Positions 1,996 to 59,963 of a stretch of DNA of 64,000 bases are shown piece by piece. The notes under the pieces are model-generated. The model ran no database searches, was not told where the DNA came from, and saw only the letters and a list, made by a program, of their open reading frames with translations. Source of the stretch: Candidatus Gastranaerophilales bacterium. GTDB lineage: Bacteria; Cyanobacteriota; Vampirovibrionia; Gastranaerophilales; Gastranaerophilaceae. The first letter of the stretch is position 1. Each line of letters begins with the position of its first letter. Position numbers and translations under genes: made by a program. The stretch lies in NCBI GenBank assembly GCA_947625305.1, contig CANQNW010000007.1, positions 36,380 to 100,379 on the forward strand, in the 5' to 3' direction.

Positions 1996-3544
1996 TTTTT
2001 GTTTCTGTTTTTTCCTGTTCAATTTTTTCAAGTTTTAATGCAGCTTGTTTTCTGTTGCTTTGATAGCCGTACAAAAAGTAAATTACAATTCCAAGTACAA
2101 GCCACAAGGGGAATAACATGGCAGAAGTTTTAACTTCTCTTAAAGCAACAAACATAAGTCCCGAGCAGAATAATACACCGATTAACGGAAACCATGGACA
2201 GCATGGAACAGTAAATGAACGAGGTCTATCGGGTTCTGTTTTTCTTAATATTAAAATACCGATACAAACAATTACAAATGAAGAGAATGTACCAAAAATA
2301 GCGAGTTCTGCAGCAACTTGCATATTTATAAATAATGAACCTATTAAAATTAATATAGTTGATAATATTGTAATAACCCATGGTGTTTGGAATTTAGGAT
2401 GAACTTTTTTCATAACGGGAGGTAAAAACCCGTCACGGGCCATAGCATATAAAATTCTTGTAGTTCCGAATTGAAGAACTAAAAGAACTGATGTTAAACC
2501 TGCTAATGCGCCGATTGCAATAGCGCCTGCAAACCAATCCTGACCTACAAAACTCATAGCTGCAGCTATAGGAGCTTTTAAATCAATCTGCCCCATAGGC
2601 ATCATGCCAGTTAATACGATAGTAACCAGCCCGTATATAATAGAGCAGATAACAAGAGAACCGATTAAGCCGATAGGCAGATTTTTCTGCGGATCTTTAG
2701 TTTCTTCAGCGGCGGTGGATATTGCGTCAAATCCGATATATGCGTAAAATATAGCGAATGCACCCATTAAAATACCTTTAATGCCTGAAGGTGCAAAAGG
2801 TGTCCAGTTTTCAGGTCTTACATAGAATGCGCCGACACCGATAAATAGAGCAATAACGGCCACTTTAACAAATACCATTATTTTAGCAAAGTTAGCTGAT
2901 TCTTGAATACCTTTAAATAAAATCCCTGCAATAACAAGTATTATAAACATGGCAGGAAGATTAACACAAATCGGAATACCTAAGAAATGAGGTATTACGG
3001 CATCAGGGTTGGCGCTAACTGCGCTTTGATAATCATTGATAAGCCAAACAGGCGGATGTTTAATGCACTCGGGCAGGAAAGGAAATCCTTCAAAAAGCTT
3101 TATAAGATAACCCGTCCAGCTGGAGGCAACAGCTATAGTACCTATTGCATATTCAAGCATTAATACCCAGCCCATCATCCAAGCGGGAAATTCACCCATT
3201 GTCGCAAACGTATAAATATACGCACTTCCTGATACAGGTATCATAGAGGCAAATTCCGCATAGCATAAAGCGGGGAATATACAAGCGATAGTAACAAGCA
3301 CTATGGAAATAACCAATGCAGGGCCTGCTCCTACACGTTCTGCCGTACCTATAACAGCCGAGCCTATCATAACAAATATACCCGCACCGATAATTGCACT
3401 GATACCCAGTATTATTAAATCAAAAGCATTTAGACTCTTTTTTAATCCGCATTTAGCCGATTCCTCCAAGAATTCATCGGGATTTTTCCTTCTGAGCAAA
3501 TTGCATACAAAGTTTTCCAGTAAATTTTTTGCGGGTTTCTGCAT
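1988..3544 (-). CDS. APC-family amino acid permease
   Basis: 518 aa with at least 12 hydrophobic helices. N-terminal GAGIFV and later AEE(T/V)K-type motifs are typical of cationic amino acid/APC transporters. The stop region overlaps the nadE end by 8 nt (convergent). Confidence 0.85.
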   Translation of the reverse strand: MQKPAKNLLENFVCNLLRRKNPDEFLEESAKCGLKKSLNAFDLIILGISAIIGAGIFVMIGSAVIGTAERVGAGPALVISIVLVTIACIFPALCYAEFASMIPVSGSAYIYTFATMGEFPAWMMGWVLMLEYAIGTIAVASSWTGYLIKLFEGFPFLPECIKHPPVWLINDYQSAVSANPDAVIPHFLGIPICVNLPAMFIILVIAGILFKGIQESANFAKIMVFVKVAVIALFIGVGAFYVRPENWTPFAPSGIKGILMGAFAIFYAYIGFDAISTAAEETKDPQKNLPIGLIGSLVICSIIYGLVTIVLTGMMPMGQIDLKAPIAAAMSFVGQDWFAGAIAIGALAGLTSVLLVLQFGTTRILYAMARDGFLPPVMKKVHPKFQTPWVITILSTILILIGSLFINMQVAAELAIFGTFSSFVIVCIGILILRKTEPDRPRSFTVPCCPWFPLIGVLFCSGLMFVALREVKTSAMLFPLWLVLGIVIYFLYGYQSNRKQAALKLEKIEQEKTETKIN

Positions 3545-3564
3545 TTATTTGTTTCCTTTTTATA

Positions 3565-4455
3565 CTATACATTGCAAGGTTGTTTTTTCAACAAAGGGAA
3601 ACCGAGTTCCTGTCTTTGTTCAACATATAATTTTGCAACCATTGCAGCCATTTTTCTAACTCTATTTATATAATTAATTCTTTCATCACGGCTTATAACA
3701 CCTCTTGCATCCAGAAGATTGAATGTATGAGAGCATTTTAATACATAATCATACGCAGGAAGCACTATTTTAGCCTCGATGCAAGTTTCAACTTCAGCCT
3801 GAAACAAATCAAACATTTTAAATAATCTTTCAGGGTTTGAGTATTCAAAATTATACTTTGACTGTTCAATTTCATTTTGAAGATAAATCTCGCCGTATTT
3901 TAACTCTTTATTCCACATAACGTCATAAACGGAATCAACATTTTGAAGATACATAGCGATACGTTCAAGCCCGTATGTAATTTCAAGTGCGACAGGTCTT
4001 ATTTCAAGCCCGCCGACCTGCTGAAAATATGTAAACTGAGTTATTTCCATGCCGTCAAGCCAAACTTCCCAGCCGACACCTGCAGCGCCTAATGTGGGCG
4101 ATTCCCAGTTATCTTCAACAAATCTTACATCATGCTTTGATAAATCTATTCCCATAGCCTCTAAACTCTTTAAGTAAAGCTCTTGAGAGTTTTCGGGCGA
4201 GGGTTTTAATATAACCTGATATTGGAAATAATGCCCAAGCCTATTGGGGTTTTCGCCGTATCTTGCATCGGTGGGTCTGCGGCATGGTTCAACCATTGCG
4301 GTATTCCAAGGTTCAGGCCCAAGTGAACGCAAAAATGTTGCAGGGTTCATTGTGCTTGCACCCTTTTCTATATCATACGGCTGTTGTATTATACAACCAT
4401 AATCACTCCAAAACTTTGATAAATTCAATATTAATTCTTGAAACGTTAAACCCAC
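3565..4455 (-). CDS. glyQ: Glycine--tRNA ligase alpha subunit
   Basis: 296 aa with strongly conserved GlyQ strings ([46 protein letters not shown]). GTG start with an AGAGGA RBS. No glyS is adjacent. Confidence 0.95.
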
Positions 4456-55535: not shown

Positions 55536-57653
55536 ATGATTAAAATAAATTTTATAAATAAATTTTCAAAAATAAAAATTCATAAAAAGTCTGTTAATCT
55601 TTTATCGGTTGCGCTTTTTGCAATACTTTTTACAAGTATTCTTGTATCAAAATACTTTTTCTTTCAAACCATTGTGGGCGATGATAATACCAGTAAAGTA
55701 ATGGTAACTGCACCTAAAAACATAGAAGTAATAGACAGTATAAAAACAGAAAACAGAAAAAGAGAAGTGGCAAGAAAAGTTAATGCTATCTACTCAACGG
55801 CTGACGACTTATATATAAAAAACAATTTAAACGATATTATTAATAAAATAAAAGAGATAAGAACAAATACCTCTGACTACAAAGATAAACAAAAGATATT
55901 GGATGTAATGATAGATGTACAAGATACATCATTAAAGAATTTTGTAGTTTCATATTTTTTAAATGCAAATGATGAATTAATAAATAAAGTATTTGTATCC
56001 TCGGAAAAAACATTAACATCCGTATTAAATGAAGGGATAACGGAAAAAGACTTTGAAGAAAATGCGCTTTCAAAGATAATAAGGAGAAATGTTGATCCGA
56101 ATACTCCGAATAATCAAATAAAAGTAATAACTGTATTATTGGAGCAGGTAATTGTTCCAAATATGATAGTGGATGAAAAAGCCACGGAGCTTGCCAGAAA
56201 AAATGCAATGGATATGGTTGCTCCGATAAAAGTTAAATTTAACAAAGGCGATACAATAATTAATGTGGGTGAACCCGTTACTCAGGTTAAAAAAGAAGCA
56301 TTAAGCAAGGCGGGCTATAATATTTTAAGAATAAATTACTTTGGAATAGCCGGTATATTATGTCTTGTTTGTATAGGAATATTTTCGGTATATTTTTGCT
56401 TAAAGTCATTTGAACCTAAATTTATTGATTTAAAACATTTATCGTTAGTCGCATTTGTATCTTTGTTTATGGCGGTCTTAGCCGTTCTTCTGCCTTCCAC
56501 CTGGTCTGTATTTATACTGCCGTTCCCGTTTTATACAATGATTTTATCGGTATTTTTAAACCCGAGAACAGCTTTCTTTATAACGGTAACTCTGTTAACG
56601 GTAATAACATTGTCGCTTCAATTTTCAGCGCTTGCAATGTCGGCATTTTTATTGTCTGTTATTATTTCAACAACGGGCATGACGACGATAAAATATTCAA
56701 GAAGATTTGATTTAATACGGGTAGGCTGTTACACGTCATTAGCAATGGCTGTAATAATACTATGTGTATATTATGACTTAGGGTTTGAAAAACTTCGTCA
56801 GGATATCTCGGCAGGTCTTGTGAACGGTATATTATCAGGAATACTTGCTATTGGGGTAATCCCGTTATTGGAAAATACATTTAAAGTAATAACAATGTTT
56901 GGTTTAGCGGAATACGGAGATTATAATCAACCGTTATTAAAGAAATTGCACGAGGCAGCCCCCGGGACTTTCGAACACAGTTTAAGAGTCTCAAATCTGG
57001 CGGAATCCGCAGCGGAAGCAATAGGTGCTAATCCTATTTTAGCCAGAGTAGGCGCTTTATACCATGATGTAGGTAAAATAGTAAGACCGTTATTTTTCGT
57101 AGAAAATCAGACCTACGGCGGTATAGAAAATCCGCATGATAAGCTTACACCTCGTTCAAGTAAAATGGTTATAACCTCGCATACAAAAGACGGTGTTGCA
57201 CTTGCAAAAGAATATCATATTCCTGAAGTTCTGCAGGATTTTATAACACAGCACCACGGAGATTCACTTGCAAGTTACTTTTATAATCAGGCAGTAGCGC
57301 AGGAAGGTGCGGAAAATGTAAAAGAAGAACAATTCAGATATACAGGGCCAAAGCCCAATTCAAAAGAAACAGCAATATTAATGATAGCGGATGCGGTTGA
57401 ATCAGCCTCAAGGACTTTAAAAGACCACTCTCAGGAAGAACTTGACACACTCATAAATAAAATTATTAAAGACAGACTTGATGATAATCAATTATCAGAA
57501 AGTCCTTTAACTTTAAAAGATATAAAAGTTATTGCTTTAACTCTTTCAAGGGTATTAAGATCGGTATTCCATAAGAGAATTAAATATCAGGAAGCAATTG
57601 AAGATTTAAAAGAAAAAACCGAAATGAAACAGGATTCAAATGGTCAAAATTAA
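55536..57653 (+). CDS. pgpH: 7TM-receptor HD-domain phosphohydrolase (PgpH/YqfF family)
   Basis: Extracellular N-domain, 7 TM helices, and HD domain (HSLRVSNLAE...GALYHDVGK, HHG). The ATG at 55536 is preferred over the TTG at 55479. The conserved yqfF-ybeY-dgkA order supports the call. Confidence 0.85.
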   Translation: MIKINFINKFSKIKIHKKSVNLLSVALFAILFTSILVSKYFFFQTIVGDDNTSKVMVTAPKNIEVIDSIKTENRKREVARKVNAIYSTADDLYIKNNLNDIINKIKEIRTNTSDYKDKQKILDVMIDVQDTSLKNFVVSYFLNANDELINKVFVSSEKTLTSVLNEGITEKDFEENALSKIIRRNVDPNTPNNQIKVITVLLEQVIVPNMIVDEKATELARKNAMDMVAPIKVKFNKGDTIINVGEPVTQVKKEALSKAGYNILRINYFGIAGILCLVCIGIFSVYFCLKSFEPKFIDLKHLSLVAFVSLFMAVLAVLLPSTWSVFILPFPFYTMILSVFLNPRTAFFITVTLLTVITLSLQFSALAMSAFLLSVIISTTGMTTIKYSRRFDLIRVGCYTSLAMAVIILCVYYDLGFEKLRQDISAGLVNGILSGILAIGVIPLLENTFKVITMFGLAEYGDYNQPLLKKLHEAAPGTFEHSLRVSNLAESAAEAIGANPILARVGALYHDVGKIVRPLFFVENQTYGGIENPHDKLTPRSSKMVITSHTKDGVALAKEYHIPEVLQDFITQHHGDSLASYFYNQAVAQEGAENVKEEQFRYTGPKPNSKETAILMIADAVESASRTLKDHSQEELDTLINKIIKDRLDDNQLSESPLTLKDIKVIALTLSRVLRSVFHKRIKYQEAIEDLKEKTEMKQDSNGQN

Positions 57654-58137
57654 TATCTTTGTTGAAAATACTTACGAAGAATTTAATATTGATGAGGTTA
57701 AAGTTTTTAATAACTCTGTTAAAATTACTGATTATTTAATCACTTGTAAAGAAGTTTATGAAAAATCCTGCTTAAAAAAATATAAATATACGGCAATATG
57801 TTTTGATATTGTTCTGGCAAATAACGGTAAAATCCGCAGAATAAATAAGGAATACAGACAAAAAGATACCCCGACTGATGTAATAACATTTGCAATGTTT
57901 GCGGATTCATCAGAAGACGAAAGGTTTATATTGGAGGGAGAAATAAATCTGGGTGAAATAATAATTTCTCTGGACAAAATTGAAGAACAGGCAAAAGAAA
58001 ATAATGTAAAATTTGAAGATGAATTGTATTACATAATTTCCCATGGAGTATTACATCTTATGGGTTTTGACCATTTGACCGAGCAAGATTATAATTTTAT
58101 GGTAGATTATCAAAATAAGGCGAAGGCAATATTATGA
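57640..58137 (+). CDS. ybeY: rRNA maturation endoribonuclease YbeY
   Basis: Zinc motif HGVLHLMGFDH and TDVITF. Confidence 0.9.
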   Translation: MVKINIFVENTYEEFNIDEVKVFNNSVKITDYLITCKEVYEKSCLKKYKYTAICFDIVLANNGKIRRINKEYRQKDTPTDVITFAMFADSSEDERFILEGEINLGEIIISLDKIEEQAKENNVKFEDELYYIISHGVLHLMGFDHLTEQDYNFMVDYQNKAKAIL

Positions 58138-58511
58138 CCAGATTTAAATCTTCAAGTGTAAAAGAAAGCATATCTCATGCGTTAAGGGGATTAAAATTAG
58201 CTTTAAGTTCGCAGAGAAATTTTGTAATTGAATTTTTATTTGGGATTTTAGTTTTATTTTGTGCAATTTTTCTAAGATTTGATATTACAGACATTTGTAT
58301 TGTAATAGTCATGATTGCAATAGTTTTAATATGCGAACTTATTAATTCCGTAATTGAATTTACACTGGATGCCGTTTATAAAAACAATTATTCAAAATTA
58401 GTCGAAATGGCAAAAGATATATCTGCGGGAATGGTATTGTTATCTGCAATAATTAGTGTGGTGGTCGGAATTTTAATTTTCACAAAAAATATAATCAGTT
58501 ATTTTGATTAA
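58134..58511 (+). CDS. dgkA: Diacylglycerol/undecaprenol kinase (DgkA family)
   Basis: 125 aa with 3 TM helices and conserved E..NSAIE-like ELINSVIEFTLD and AKDISAG strings. Confidence 0.85.
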   Translation: MTRFKSSSVKESISHALRGLKLALSSQRNFVIEFLFGILVLFCAIFLRFDITDICIVIVMIAIVLICELINSVIEFTLDAVYKNNYSKLVEMAKDISAGMVLLSAIISVVVGILIFTKNIISYFD

Positions 58512-58520
58512 ATTTTAAGC

Positions 58521-58545
58521 AAAAAAAAGGGACATATAATGCCCC
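58521..58545 (-). terminator. Orphan minus-strand intrinsic terminator
   Basis: The minus strand reads GGGGCAT-TAT-ATGTCCC (7-bp stem with one G-U) followed by T8. On the + strand the stem has an A-C mismatch and no T run. Confidence 0.5.
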
Positions 58546-58920
58546 AAACAATTCGGAATGTAAAAGAAAATTTTTGTTATACATATAATTAATATGTATG
58601 TTAGATTGTAAGTTGTTTTAATAGCAGTTTAAGTATTTTTCCCAATTAATCTTGTAGTCGTGTTAGTTCTCTCTTAATATCTTTTGTTTATTTGTGTTTG
58701 ATTAACTCTTACATGTATATAAAGTATTTTGTATATAAAAAATTGCTAAACTTTAAATAAAAAATATATATTAATGTAATATTTCTTAACAAAGTACAAA
58801 TTAGCTTTAAGGGTGAAAGAGTAATAGGACAAATAATTAAACAGGCGGATAATATACGAATACATATTTAAACAATTATTATAAAGCTATACATATTCCA
58901 CTCTCACTCGTAAACTGTTT

Positions 58921-58948
58921 GACCGAATGAATTTTCGGTCTTTTTTTT
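58921..58948 (+). terminator. Orphan plus-strand intrinsic terminator
   Basis: GACCGAA (58921-58927) - 6-nt loop - TTCGGTC (58934-58940) - T8 (58941-58948). It lies 410 nt after the dgkA stop with no intervening ORF. Confidence 0.65.
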
Positions 58949-59061
58949 GAATTTTCGGAAGGGTGGAGTGAGTGAAACGAACGAACCCGAAAGTGCAATA
59001 GACAGGCGGAGCGACAAAATTACGCAGTAATTTTAAAGCGAAGCGGATAGTCTATGCACAC

Positions 59062-59123
59062 CCGAAAATTCAATTAAGGCGAACGACAGGGCAGAGAGGA
59101 AGGAAAAACCAAATGGCGAAATT
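59062..59123. repeat. 62-nt direct repeat, copy 1
   Basis: CCGAAAATTCAATTAAGGCGAACGACAGGGCAGAGAGGAAGGAAAAACCAAATGGCGAAATT; 61/62 identical to copy 2. Confidence 0.95.
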
Positions 59124-59153
59124 GTGTGTAGAAAGTGAAACGAACGAACCCTT

Positions 59154-59215
59154 CCGAAAATTCAATTAAGGCGAACGACAGGGCAGAGAGGAAGGAAAAA
59201 CTAAATGGCGAAATT
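59154..59215. repeat. 62-nt direct repeat, copy 2
   Basis: Same sequence as 59062-59123 except for C to T at 59202. The period is 92 nt. Confidence 0.95.
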
Positions 59216-59383
59216 CCGTACGGAATTTTGTTTCTTGAAATTCCTTTCGCTCGAACTTGTCACTCCTTCGGCTTTGCCTGTCGTCGTTTCCGCCTTCAGC
59301 TACGCATACAGGCTCAATCATCCTCGCTTCGCTGCGGTGTTTCGCTTTGTAGCTAACCGAACTTTGTCCGTACGGAATTTCGC
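59208..59383. repeat. 176-bp segment bounded by perfect 17-bp inverted repeats (MITE-like or long-range RNA stem)
   Basis: GCGAAATTCCGTACGGA (59208-59224) is the exact reverse complement of TCCGTACGGAATTTCGC (59367-59383). Confidence 0.6.
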
Positions 59384-59411
59384 AAAAAAAAGACGAATGT
59401 GTGATTCGTCT
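59384..59411 (-). terminator. Intrinsic terminator of the 175-aa hypothetical gene
   Basis: The minus strand reads AGACGAAT-CACAC-ATTCGTCT followed by T8. Confidence 0.75.
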
Positions 59412-59435
59412 CGGAAAAAAACAAGTAACAATGTA

Positions 59436-59963
59436 CTAGGCAAATATGTTTATTGAACCCGTCATAGGTTCTTCTTTTTCTTGAGAGTCTTTGTTTTCCA
59501 TATGCATATAAAATGAAAACGGATTAGACCCTTTTTTATCTTTATCAAGATTATATGTTTCAGTAACCTGTGATGCCTGAGTTACAACCTCACGGTCAAC
59601 AATTTGGTTAATTTCGTCCACACCTACCGCCAATTTACCCATATTTTCTTTGGAGGTAAATAAGCTTTGAGCCGCTTGAGAATTTAAATATTGAACATTT
59701 GCACTAAAGGCTTGAGAAAAATTAATATCAAAATCAACAGCCGCCTTAGATGCTTTTAATGCTAATTCTCCGCTTGTTCTTTGAGCATATAAGTCAGTGC
59801 CGAGTGATACTCTGTTAAATTTTGATAAATCTAACTTAGATACATCAACGGTTTTTTCATTATTCGGATTTAATATTTTTTCCGTAACTTTAGCTAAAGC
59901 CTGTACATCTATTACAGGTTTTTGATAATTAGCTGAATTTACGAACCCAACGTTTAATCCCAT
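59436..59963 (-). CDS. Hypothetical protein
   Basis: 175 aa with an AAAGGCGG RBS region and composition typical of local proteins. No TM or signal peptide and no recognisable motif. Confidence 0.5.
   Translation of the reverse strand: MGLNVGFVNSANYQKPVIDVQALAKVTEKILNPNNEKTVDVSKLDLSKFNRVSLGTDLYAQRTSGELALKASKAAVDFDINFSQAFSANVQYLNSQAAQSLFTSKENMGKLAVGVDEINQIVDREVVTQASQVTETYNLDKDKKGSNPFSFYMHMENKDSQEKEEPMTGSINIFA

Follow-up and report, generated by a model that had tools for sequence, protein, structure and literature searches.

Putative REP-like three-stem repeats arrayed beside intrinsic terminators in gut Melainabacteria

The sequence analyzed here, hereafter the window, is a stretch of 64,000 nucleotides (nt) from a rabbit-gut Candidatus Gastranaerophilales genome (assembly GCA_947625305.1, contig CANQNW010000007.1, positions 36,380 to 100,379), and its positions 58949-59383 form a GC-rich, gene-free island between a conserved AT-rich non-coding element, which we call element A, and the gene for a conserved 175-aa protein, gene X. 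Comparison with about 25 related loci shows that the island is composed of two head-to-head arrays of one repeat unit, each array beginning directly after the T8 tract of an intrinsic terminator. At somewhat better than even odds (roughly 0.55), we read it as a lineage-specific, terminator-anchored three-stem repeat of the kind known as repetitive extragenic palindromes (REPs) and bacterial interspersed mosaic elements (BIMEs), evolving by local duplication, recombination and inversion. The anatomy of the units, the covariation in their stems, their anchoring to T-tracts, their rapid rearrangement and, within the sampled DNA, their restriction to this neighborhood emerge directly from the comparison. 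The related loci, about 60 in all, were fetched by way of gene X and carry L numbers below; L003 and L004 come from metagenome-assembled genomes (MAGs) of rabbit-gut Candidatus Gastranaerophilales.

The units are 95-160 nt long and fold, as a single strand of DNA or RNA, into a three-way junction. A common minimum free energy (MFE) architecture of three stems, P1, P2 and P3, was obtained in 17/17 dissected units. The closing stem P1 has 8-12 bp with an AAATTT-rich core and is followed by a 3-nt junction, usually GUA, and the short hairpin P2; a GAAGUA-type junction then leads to the long, variable hairpin P3, from which a GA-rich junction returns to P1. P2 reads GGGY...RCCC or CGGAC...GUCCG, has large loops on stems of just 3-5 bp, and is usually preceded by GTAG in type 1 units and by GTAC in type 2 units. 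A unit starts with GCGAAATTTCCGTAGGG... directly after T8 and ends in ...GGAAATTTCAAGAW, after which GCGAAATTT opens the next.

The stems covary strongly. At least 13 versions of P1 were found, each perfectly complementary to its own 3' arm: GAAATTTCC, GAAATTTTC, GAAATTTAC, GAAATTTGC, GCAAATTTCC, GAATTTTCGG, GGTTTTTCC, GAAATTCC, GAAATTCT, GAAAATTC, GAAATTTC, GGATTTTTTGC and CAAATTTCG. Across 12 non-redundant units with 11 different P1 sequences, pairing with the unit's own partner was 8/8 Watson-Crick in every case, as against a mean of 5.0/8 in cross-pairings, which reached 8/8 in 6/132. P2 occurs in seven sequence variants, all of which pair. We also built a covariance model, R1, from ten units and aligned its 22 matches to it. 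Paired cells made up 85.7% of that alignment (68.6% in shuffles), both sides changed in 16/19 pairs, and the covariation score was 0.419, compared with 0.149 for shuffles (0/500 of which reached it) and at most 0.118 when the partners were slid. Wobble cells numbered 14 G:U and 18 A:C, and P1 was purely Watson-Crick; since these counts carry no strand signal, we dropped the assignment of a strand by wobble pairs. Complementarity may be upheld by selection on the hairpin, or by templated correction of one arm from the other at the DNA level.

A first-pass annotation of the window, made from its letters only, had described the island as compositionally foreign and dense in repeats, and direct counts agree. 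GC content is 46.4% over 58949-59383, as against 23.8% over 58512-58948 and 30.4% in the whole window; windowed values are 0.44-0.465 over 58900-59399 and 0.205-0.235 over 58500-58899. The repeats were recovered where the annotation had placed them: a 62-nt direct repeat (59062-59123 and 59154-59215, 98% identity, spacing 92 nt), an 18-mer (58971-58988 and 59134-59151) whose extension reaches 26 nt at 88%, and the perfect inverted repeats I1, of 18 nt (58947-58964 / 59148-59165), and I2, of 17 nt (59208-59224 / 59367-59383). To these we add a perfect 12-bp inverted repeat in the island's flanks, GTCTTTTTTTTG / CAAAAAAAAGAC (58938-58949 / 59383-59394). The island is the single site of its repeat motifs within the window, where shuffles predict 0.00-0.04 chance matches. 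Tandem Repeats Finder detected no array in it. Parts and variants of the island recur in L001, L002, L003 and L004, and it is therefore no assembly artefact.

The features of the island and its borders are listed here by coordinates and strand.

58512-58948, no strand assigned: element A, a conserved AT-rich non-coding element, delimited by terminator and promoter scans and by homologues.
58921-58948, plus strand: predicted intrinsic terminator with hairpin GACCGAA-TGAATT-TTCGGTC and T8; the next base is the first of the left array.
58947-59073, plus strand: unit L1, a complete three-way junction with MFE -41.9 kcal/mol and z -6.26; matched by covariance model R1 at 58949-59071 (E 4e-13); inverted repeat I3.
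59074-59115, plus strand: orphan 3' half-unit of the L003 type, from alignments and unit dissection.
59116-59165, plus strand: chimeric, truncated unit that does not fold stably by itself (MFE -0.9 kcal/mol, z +2.1).
59166-59207, plus strand: orphan 3' half-unit, second copy, of the direct repeat family D1 with its 92-nt period.
59208-59236, no strand assigned: collision zone; another plus-strand unit begins here (GCGAAATT...), its start overlapping the distal trailer of the unit on the minus strand.
59383-59237, minus strand: unit R1, type 2, with MFE -42 kcal/mol and z -1.9; matched by the nhmmer type-2 profile (E 2.5e-8).
59384-59412, minus strand: predicted intrinsic terminator of the 175-aa gene X and anchor of the right array; its hairpin, at 59412-59390, is followed by a T8 that reaches 59384.
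59436-59963, minus strand: gene X, encoding a conserved 175-aa protein and divergent from rplS.

The left array (58949-59215, sense on the plus strand) runs from element A's plus-strand terminator and holds one complete unit, two orphan half-units and one truncated unit, while the right array (59383-59237, sense on the minus strand) holds one unit, runs from gene X's terminator and meets the left array head-on. In unit L1, P1 joins 58947-58958 to 59062-59073, P2 joins 58961-58964 to 58985-58988 (GGGT/ACCC) beneath a purine-rich loop that holds the 18-mer, and P3 joins 58993-59003 to 59050-59059, with an inner stem at 59016-59023 / 59027-59034. The loop and 3' arm of the adjacent terminator, TGAATTTTCGG (58927-58937), recur exactly at 58948-58958 as the 5' arm of this P1, and on the strength of that repeat the units may have been seeded from terminator hairpins. 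The first orphan half-unit keeps a 3' arm of P1, GGAAAAACC (59102-59110); its partner, GGTTTTTCC, occurs in L001, L003 and L004 and is missing in the window. The truncated unit is a fusion of a 5' part, GCGAAATTGTGTGTAGAAAGTGAAACGAACGAACCC, with an L1-type 3' arm of P1 (CCGAAAATTCAA). Unit R1 closes its P1 by pairing GAAATTCC (59381-59374) with GGAATTTC (59244-59237); its P2 is CGGAC-AAA-GUUCG, with one G:U pair and GUA before it, and its branched interior exceeds that of L1 in length. Covariance model R1 matches this unit only weakly (59237-59381, minus strand, E 0.7).

The direct and inverted repeats and complementary stretches noted in the first-pass annotation follow from this modular anatomy. 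Its 92-nt-period repeat corresponds to 59074-59165 plus 59166 onward, and an 18-nt perfect palindrome (59211-59228) lies in the collision zone. The strand asymmetry it described was borne out (the plus strand is 69% purine in the left half and 35% in the right), and the switch at about 59215 arises because two oppositely oriented arrays collide there. The single long fold-back with mutually exclusive pairings that it proposed did not survive: the left half scored 40 against the reverse complement of the right half, compared with 33 +/- 6 for shuffled sequence. Folding of the whole island went modestly beyond shuffles (z -2.5 on the plus strand and -1.35 on the minus strand), and the complete unit at 58947-59073 reached z -6.3 by itself. 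The view of the island as non-coding and built of structure-forming modules was supported. That no known RNA family is involved was likewise supported: ARAGORN found no tRNA or tmRNA, Rfam 15 gave no match at gathering score in the window and only noise (E>1) in a permissive search of 58400-59500, and the arrays of eight related loci had no Rfam match.

The position of the arrays follows a rule. They begin straight after the T-tract of one of three related intrinsic terminators, namely that of gene X and the two outward-facing ones of element A. The junction of T8 with a GCGAAATTTCCGTAGGG-type start was found at gene X's terminator in at least 12 loci (L003, L004, L006-L010, L012, L014, L041, L048 and L063), and also at element A's plus- and minus-strand terminators (element A-end junctions in L006, L013, L048 and L063). 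Throughout about 20 arrays, the units are in sense orientation relative to the adjacent terminator. The sense strand is purine-rich (65-69%), and its fold was more stable than that of the antisense strand in 17/17 units. Relatives with as little as 57-68% identity in gene X likewise have GC-rich sequence directly after the T-run of the gene X terminator, regardless of the gene beyond. In the window, the terminator scan returned a plus-strand hairpin (58921-58940) and a minus-strand hairpin (59412-59390), each followed by T8 and both facing into the island, as had been noted before. The role of mere insulation assigned to them then does not fit a junction that recurs at three terminators in many genomes; they are the points at which the arrays are anchored.

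Two further stretches, divergent, purine-rich, GC-rich and structured, lie outside the unit model: one follows the gene X terminator at 4610-4760 of L028, a distant relative (33% protein identity), and a similar one follows element A's minus-strand terminator at about 11870-12010 of L037 (minus). The habit of trailing a terminator may be broader than the unit family defined here.

No promoter-like site was detected by the promoter scan within 58949-59383, and scanning and inspection of gene X's conserved 3' untranslated region (UTR) and terminator revealed none that could serve the arrays. Having no promoter, the units would therefore be transcribed only as read-through trailers, in which case they may act as REP-like stable 3' structures or as insulators between convergent transcription units.

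The arrays turn over quickly, with 0 to about 5 units in each. Aligned with window positions 57001-59864, L001 is 99.8% identical left of 58965 (up to the T8 at 58948) and 92% identical right of 59078. The left unit of both L001 and L003 differs from that of the window, L001's being of the L003 type. This break in identity, together with the exchanged left unit, places a recombination breakpoint at the island, and the mosaic pattern indicates recombination between strains, with a crossover at or within the repeat arrays. L004 has the island inverted as a whole, with its flanks unchanged and its right unit duplicated. L063 carries 3.5 tandem copies of the window's L1-type unit, in which P3 shows compensatory changes, behind the terminator of gene X, as well as L003- and R1-type units anchored at element A's minus-strand terminator. 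One 97-nt unit type occupies all three terminators in L048, where the sole difference between two of the copies is a compensatory change in P1, from T:A to A:T, and L041 has 3.2 copies of a 113-nt unit. Empty terminators were found in L011, L013, L037, L044-47, L050, L052, L053, L062 and L064. Element A itself lies in opposite orientations relative to gene X and dgkA in the window and in L037, and contigs break frequently at the island (L002, L005 and L010).

Several local processes would account for these differences. Arrays may grow and shrink by slippage or unequal crossing-over at the shared GCGAAATTT unit starts, exchange unit types by gene conversion between arrays, and flip by inversion between the inverted repeats formed by T8/A8 and the unit starts. 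The double transversion in L048 suggests a correction at the DNA level in which quasi-palindrome template switching would use one arm to restore the other. A different small hairpin module, AAAACGATAYTTAATCGTTTT followed by GTYGGCAGAGT, interrupts units in L007 (about 1350-1400) and L010 (about 3540-3582). L052 (111-420) has two copies of it beside a tRNA gene, accompanied by duplicated pieces of tRNA. The module has the look of an integration scar or of a second, mobile repeat family.

We searched 558,615 bases from 51 sources with covariance model R1. Of the 33 matches, 32/33 lay inside terminator arrays, and none lay elsewhere in the 64-kb window. The sole outlier (L064 6889-7004, E 7.7e-5) is intergenic, 3 kb from gene X, and stands beside a fragment of another repeat family. 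Searches with blastn, using 13 arrays, and with nhmmer, using profiles of the unit 5' domain, likewise placed the units almost exclusively in these arrays. An exact 23-mer from the 62-nt repeat occurred in two records among 185,579 GTDB species representatives, L003 and L004, both syntenic. The first-pass annotation had set a locus present in close relatives apart from a dispersed miniature inverted-repeat transposable element (MITE) with target-site duplications, and the former is what these searches and the syntenic locus in L003 and L004 favor. Collections of phages and plasmids gave no blastn match, and four pattern scans of IMG/VR returned nothing or chance 17-mers lacking a surrounding unit, on which grounds we rejected a phage or plasmid origin. 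Within the sampled DNA, the units appear, judging from sequence comparison, to be known only from gut Melainabacteria (Gastranaerophilales).

The repeat family beside the outlier is of another GC-rich kind, about 200 nt long, with at least 5 copies within 20 kb of L064 (12000-13250, 15050-15250 and 6840-6880). It contains CAGTCTACCCATCCCAGCCTTCCCTAACTAGGGAAGGAG... and ...CCTCCCTGTTTAGGGAGGATTTAGGTGGGTAG, and one of its fragments abuts the only unit found outside the terminator arrays.

Among known systems, REPs and BIMEs offer the closest parallels. Di Nocera et al. (2013; PMC3733652) describe GTAG-tagged REPs as having the tag, sites between convergent genes, alternating orientation and likely transcription, and one of the families, GTAG-23 of T. 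roseum, as forming clusters at a small number of loci, much as the units here are confined to few loci. Like REPs, the units are extragenic, hairpin-forming and richer in GC than their surroundings. A GTAG or GTAC tag stands directly before P2 in most of them, a partial likeness, since P2 is short in the stem and the repeated unit is the entire three-way junction. The units lie downstream of genes and between convergent units, in mosaic clusters of alternating orientation that can fold into larger structures; and they vary between strains while their stems covary. The island of the window lies between converging transcription units and contains both orientations, as do the corresponding regions of L048 and L063.

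Several points weigh against this assignment. REPs normally measure 20-40 bp and are high-copy and genome-wide, whereas the units are 3-5 times longer, low in copy number and found almost only beside three terminators. REPs are simple palindromes, whereas the units are three-way junctions that always lie in sense with a purine-rich sense strand. Such strict orientation and purine loading are left unexplained by a purely DNA-level repeat and, together with the greater stability of the sense strand in 17/17 units and the conserved GUA/GAAGUA junctions, lean toward a role at the RNA level. No REP-associated tyrosine transposase (RAYT) or other transposase was seen in the window, not every open reading frame (ORF) of which was scanned for one. 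All sampling was centered on gene X, so arrays elsewhere in these genomes of ~2 Mb are possible. The pair counts of the covariation alignment are inflated by its having been fitted to model R1; the P1 and P2 tables are independent of the model.

These considerations lend some weight to a tentative alternative, in which the units are functional RNA modules, a new RNA motif, carried as sense 3' trailers of gene X mRNA and of small RNA (sRNA)-like transcripts of element A. Stems under selection for RNA structure could then serve as a protein-binding or sponge array, as a block to an exonuclease or RNase E, or as a 3'-end processing signal. The sense orientation of about 20 arrays would be expected of such modules, as would a sense strand that is 65-69% purine and the stabler one in 17/17 units, an unpaired GUA and GAAGUA conserved around P2, conserved purine-rich loops such as GUGAAACGAA, strong covariation in all three helices and GC-rich units in a 30% GC genome. 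Two single substitutions, one in the window's P2 and one in copy 2 of L004, give G:U pairs on the sense strand. Set against this are the lack of a promoter and the canonical hairpin-T8 terminator directly upstream of every array. Arrays are also absent in many relatives, vary from 0 to about 5 copies and tolerate orphan and truncated units, and the unbiased wobble cells (14 G:U vs 18 A:C), the purely Watson-Crick P1 and the absence of an Rfam family count against an RNA role as well. We dropped a 7-nt match of the conserved CUCACUC in element A to the P2 loop of L1, as other units do not keep it.

It is also possible, if rather doubtful, that the units represent an undescribed terminator-tied element, either a three-way-junction RNA motif or a protein-less homing hairpin element. 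In the first form, an RNA motif arising from terminator read-through would trail sibling terminators of the sRNA type, those of gene X's 3' untranslated region and of both ends of element A, and control their 3' ends, stability or insulation. In the second, a protein-less hairpin element of about 100 nt would home one-way to the T-tracts of particular terminators. Both forms are compatible with the sense rule and purine loading of the units as well as with their conserved junction motifs and strong covariation. In the literature we found nothing specific on repeats of Gastranaerophilales or on terminator-associated repeats.

An unlikely alternative makes the units small non-autonomous mobile elements, inserted one-way beside hairpin-plus-T-tract targets by a trans-acting enzyme, for which an HUH/Y1 transposase (RAYT or IS200 type) or a retroelement would be candidates, with group IIC intron homing as a parallel. 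The precise, orientation-specific junction between T8 and unit at three terminators speaks for it, and so do the 97-nt unit at all three terminators of L048, the permutation of unit types among terminators between species, the unit-like copy at an unrelated intergenic site in L064 (6889-7004, E 7.7e-5), the GTAG tag before the hairpin as in RAYT substrates (PMC3733652) and the frequent contig breaks at the island. Many other hairpin-T-run terminators in about 560 kb nevertheless lack a unit, no target-site duplication was found, and group II hallmarks are absent. No transposase-like gene was seen adjoining the island or in the window, where gene X alone among the ORFs was run against Pfam. An inherited module of terminator plus unit, followed by gene conversion and inversion, explains the pattern too.

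MITEs such as Correia, RUP and Nezha resemble the units in being about 100-150 bp long, non-coding, intergenic and variable between strains, in folding into long hairpins, and in having terminal inverted repeats, to which the P1 arms would correspond. In contrast to MITEs, the units have no target-site duplication, being flanked by T8 on one side and by AAGAW or the next unit on the other, and they are not dispersed in the sampled DNA, L064 6889-7004 being the single outlier. Their P1 arms vary between copies and yet stay complementary within a copy, whereas repeats recognized by a transposase would keep their sequence. Group IIC introns were reportedly observed by Robart et al. in 2007 to home just after intrinsic terminators. 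The units share with them a place directly after a terminator T-tract, the sense orientation and the stem-loop as landmark, but start with GCGAA rather than GUGYG, have no domain V/VI, reverse transcriptase or Rfam intron match, and at ~100 nt (95-160) without an ORF fall far short of introns of 0.6-2 kb. These introns are retroelements whose target sites lie directly behind intrinsic terminators (PMC4748821). A group II intron remnant was rejected for want of a GUGYG start, a domain V and an Rfam match.

We give very little credence to the idea that the island is an inverton, flipped by a site-specific recombinase between GTCTTTTTTTTG and CAAAAAAAAGAC. The opposite orientation of the island in L004 between otherwise collinear flanks, the perfect 12-bp inverted repeat in the flanks and the similar inversion of element A between genomes would suit it. 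Both orientations were seen only between species-level genomes, however, and no recombinase gene was seen near the island. Since convergent units have their 3' ends on either side of the island, flipping would redirect no promoter, and because the arrays stand head to head, inversion leaves the sense rule unchanged, with no functional difference evident.

The first-pass view of the island as one new structured RNA gene, about 435 nt long, driven by a promoter of its own and insulated by two inward-facing terminators, is scarcely credible despite the GC-rich island in an AT-rich genome, its many internal pairings, the absence of a known family and the plus-strand z of -2.5, given that no promoter-like site lies within 58949-59383, that the two halves, with their fold-back score of 40 vs 33 +/- 6 in shuffles, are oppositely oriented units of one family rather than arms of one fold, and that an island rearranged, inverted or absent among relatives, its architecture not kept even among strains and sister species and its homologous positions holding 0 to about 5 units, is a poor fit to a conserved stand-alone RNA gene.

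Other array types were compared as well. ToxI repeats and the CsrB/RsmZ sponges resemble the arrays in being tandem, purine-rich, structured repeats of variable copy number near a terminator and a gene of ~170 aa. Here, by contrast, the order is reversed (gene, terminator, repeats), there is no promoter, the units are heterogeneous and arrays are often absent; and unlike the partner of a type III antitoxin, gene X is a core syntenic gene with no toxin or other Pfam signature. A clustered regularly interspaced short palindromic repeat (CRISPR) or type III antitoxin array was rejected, as heterogeneous units abut without spacers, Tandem Repeats Finder reports no array and no cas gene adjoins the island. 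Integron attC sites, or clusters of attC sites lacking integron-integrases (CALIN), were rejected by inspection of the unit ends, which show no RYYYAAC / GTTRRRY boxes.

Turning to the neighbors that anchor the arrays, element A ends in two outward-facing hairpins with T8 tracts, one on the minus strand (58545-58521) and one on the plus strand (58921-58948), and has a conserved promoter-like site, TTGCTA-18-TATATT, at 58743-58772 (consensus across relatives TTGCTA-18-TATAWT). Homologues occur in L003, L004, L006, L013, L037, L044-52 and L063, with ends of about 60 nt invariant across Gastranaerophilales, and element A has no Rfam match. Its sequence features suggest one or two unannotated sRNA genes that are strongly conserved and specific to the lineage. 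On its far side, within 58134-58520 of the window, dgkA has no terminator of its own, and 9 nt separate its stop codon from the A8 that belongs to the minus-strand terminator of element A. Transcription of dgkA is therefore predicted to run antisense through element A up to the terminator at 58921-58948.

Gene X has more than 160 homologues, and the named sources are all Gastranaerophilales; distant relatives with 28-36% identity lie on other metagenome contigs. It is divergent from rplS-ylqF-rnhB wherever the upstream neighbor was covered. The protein has no Pfam match, and its AlphaFold model, of low confidence (mean predicted local distance difference test score, pLDDT, 53), is mostly helical or disordered. 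Its 3' UTR is more conserved than its coding sequence: the 3' UTR plus terminator (59392-59435, minus strand; ACATTGTTACTTGTTTTTCCGAGACGAAA...) is near-invariant in L006-L014 and L037-L064 despite 55-68% protein identity. The same 3' UTR resembles stretches upstream of element A's two terminators (ACATT...TTGTTT), and the modules at these 3' ends may thus be related members of one family, or the 3' UTR may give rise to an sRNA.

The ORFs of 73 and 83 aa reported in the island do exist. As genes we reject them, without a search for homologues, since they cross the boundaries of units and terminators and are destroyed by the rearrangements in L003 and L004. A similar case is the 182-aa 'gene' called in a public MAG at L063 4549-5097, which falls over its whole length inside repeat arrays and is almost certainly not a real gene.

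Among the relatives of Cyanobacteria, the Melainabacteria (Vampirovibrionia) are an uncultured group of the gut, and we know of no description of their non-coding repertoire. The locus offers a covariation-supported repeat unit with an unusual rule, by which sense arrays stand exactly after the T-runs of specific terminators. The arrays break metagenome assemblies, mark a hotspot of recombination and inversion beside the rplS operon, and spawn spurious ORFs, among them those of 73 and 83 aa in the window and the called 182-aa 'gene' in L063. Should the rule have a functional basis, it would point to a new way to finish or insulate transcripts; should it stem from homing, the units would be a new terminator-targeting element.

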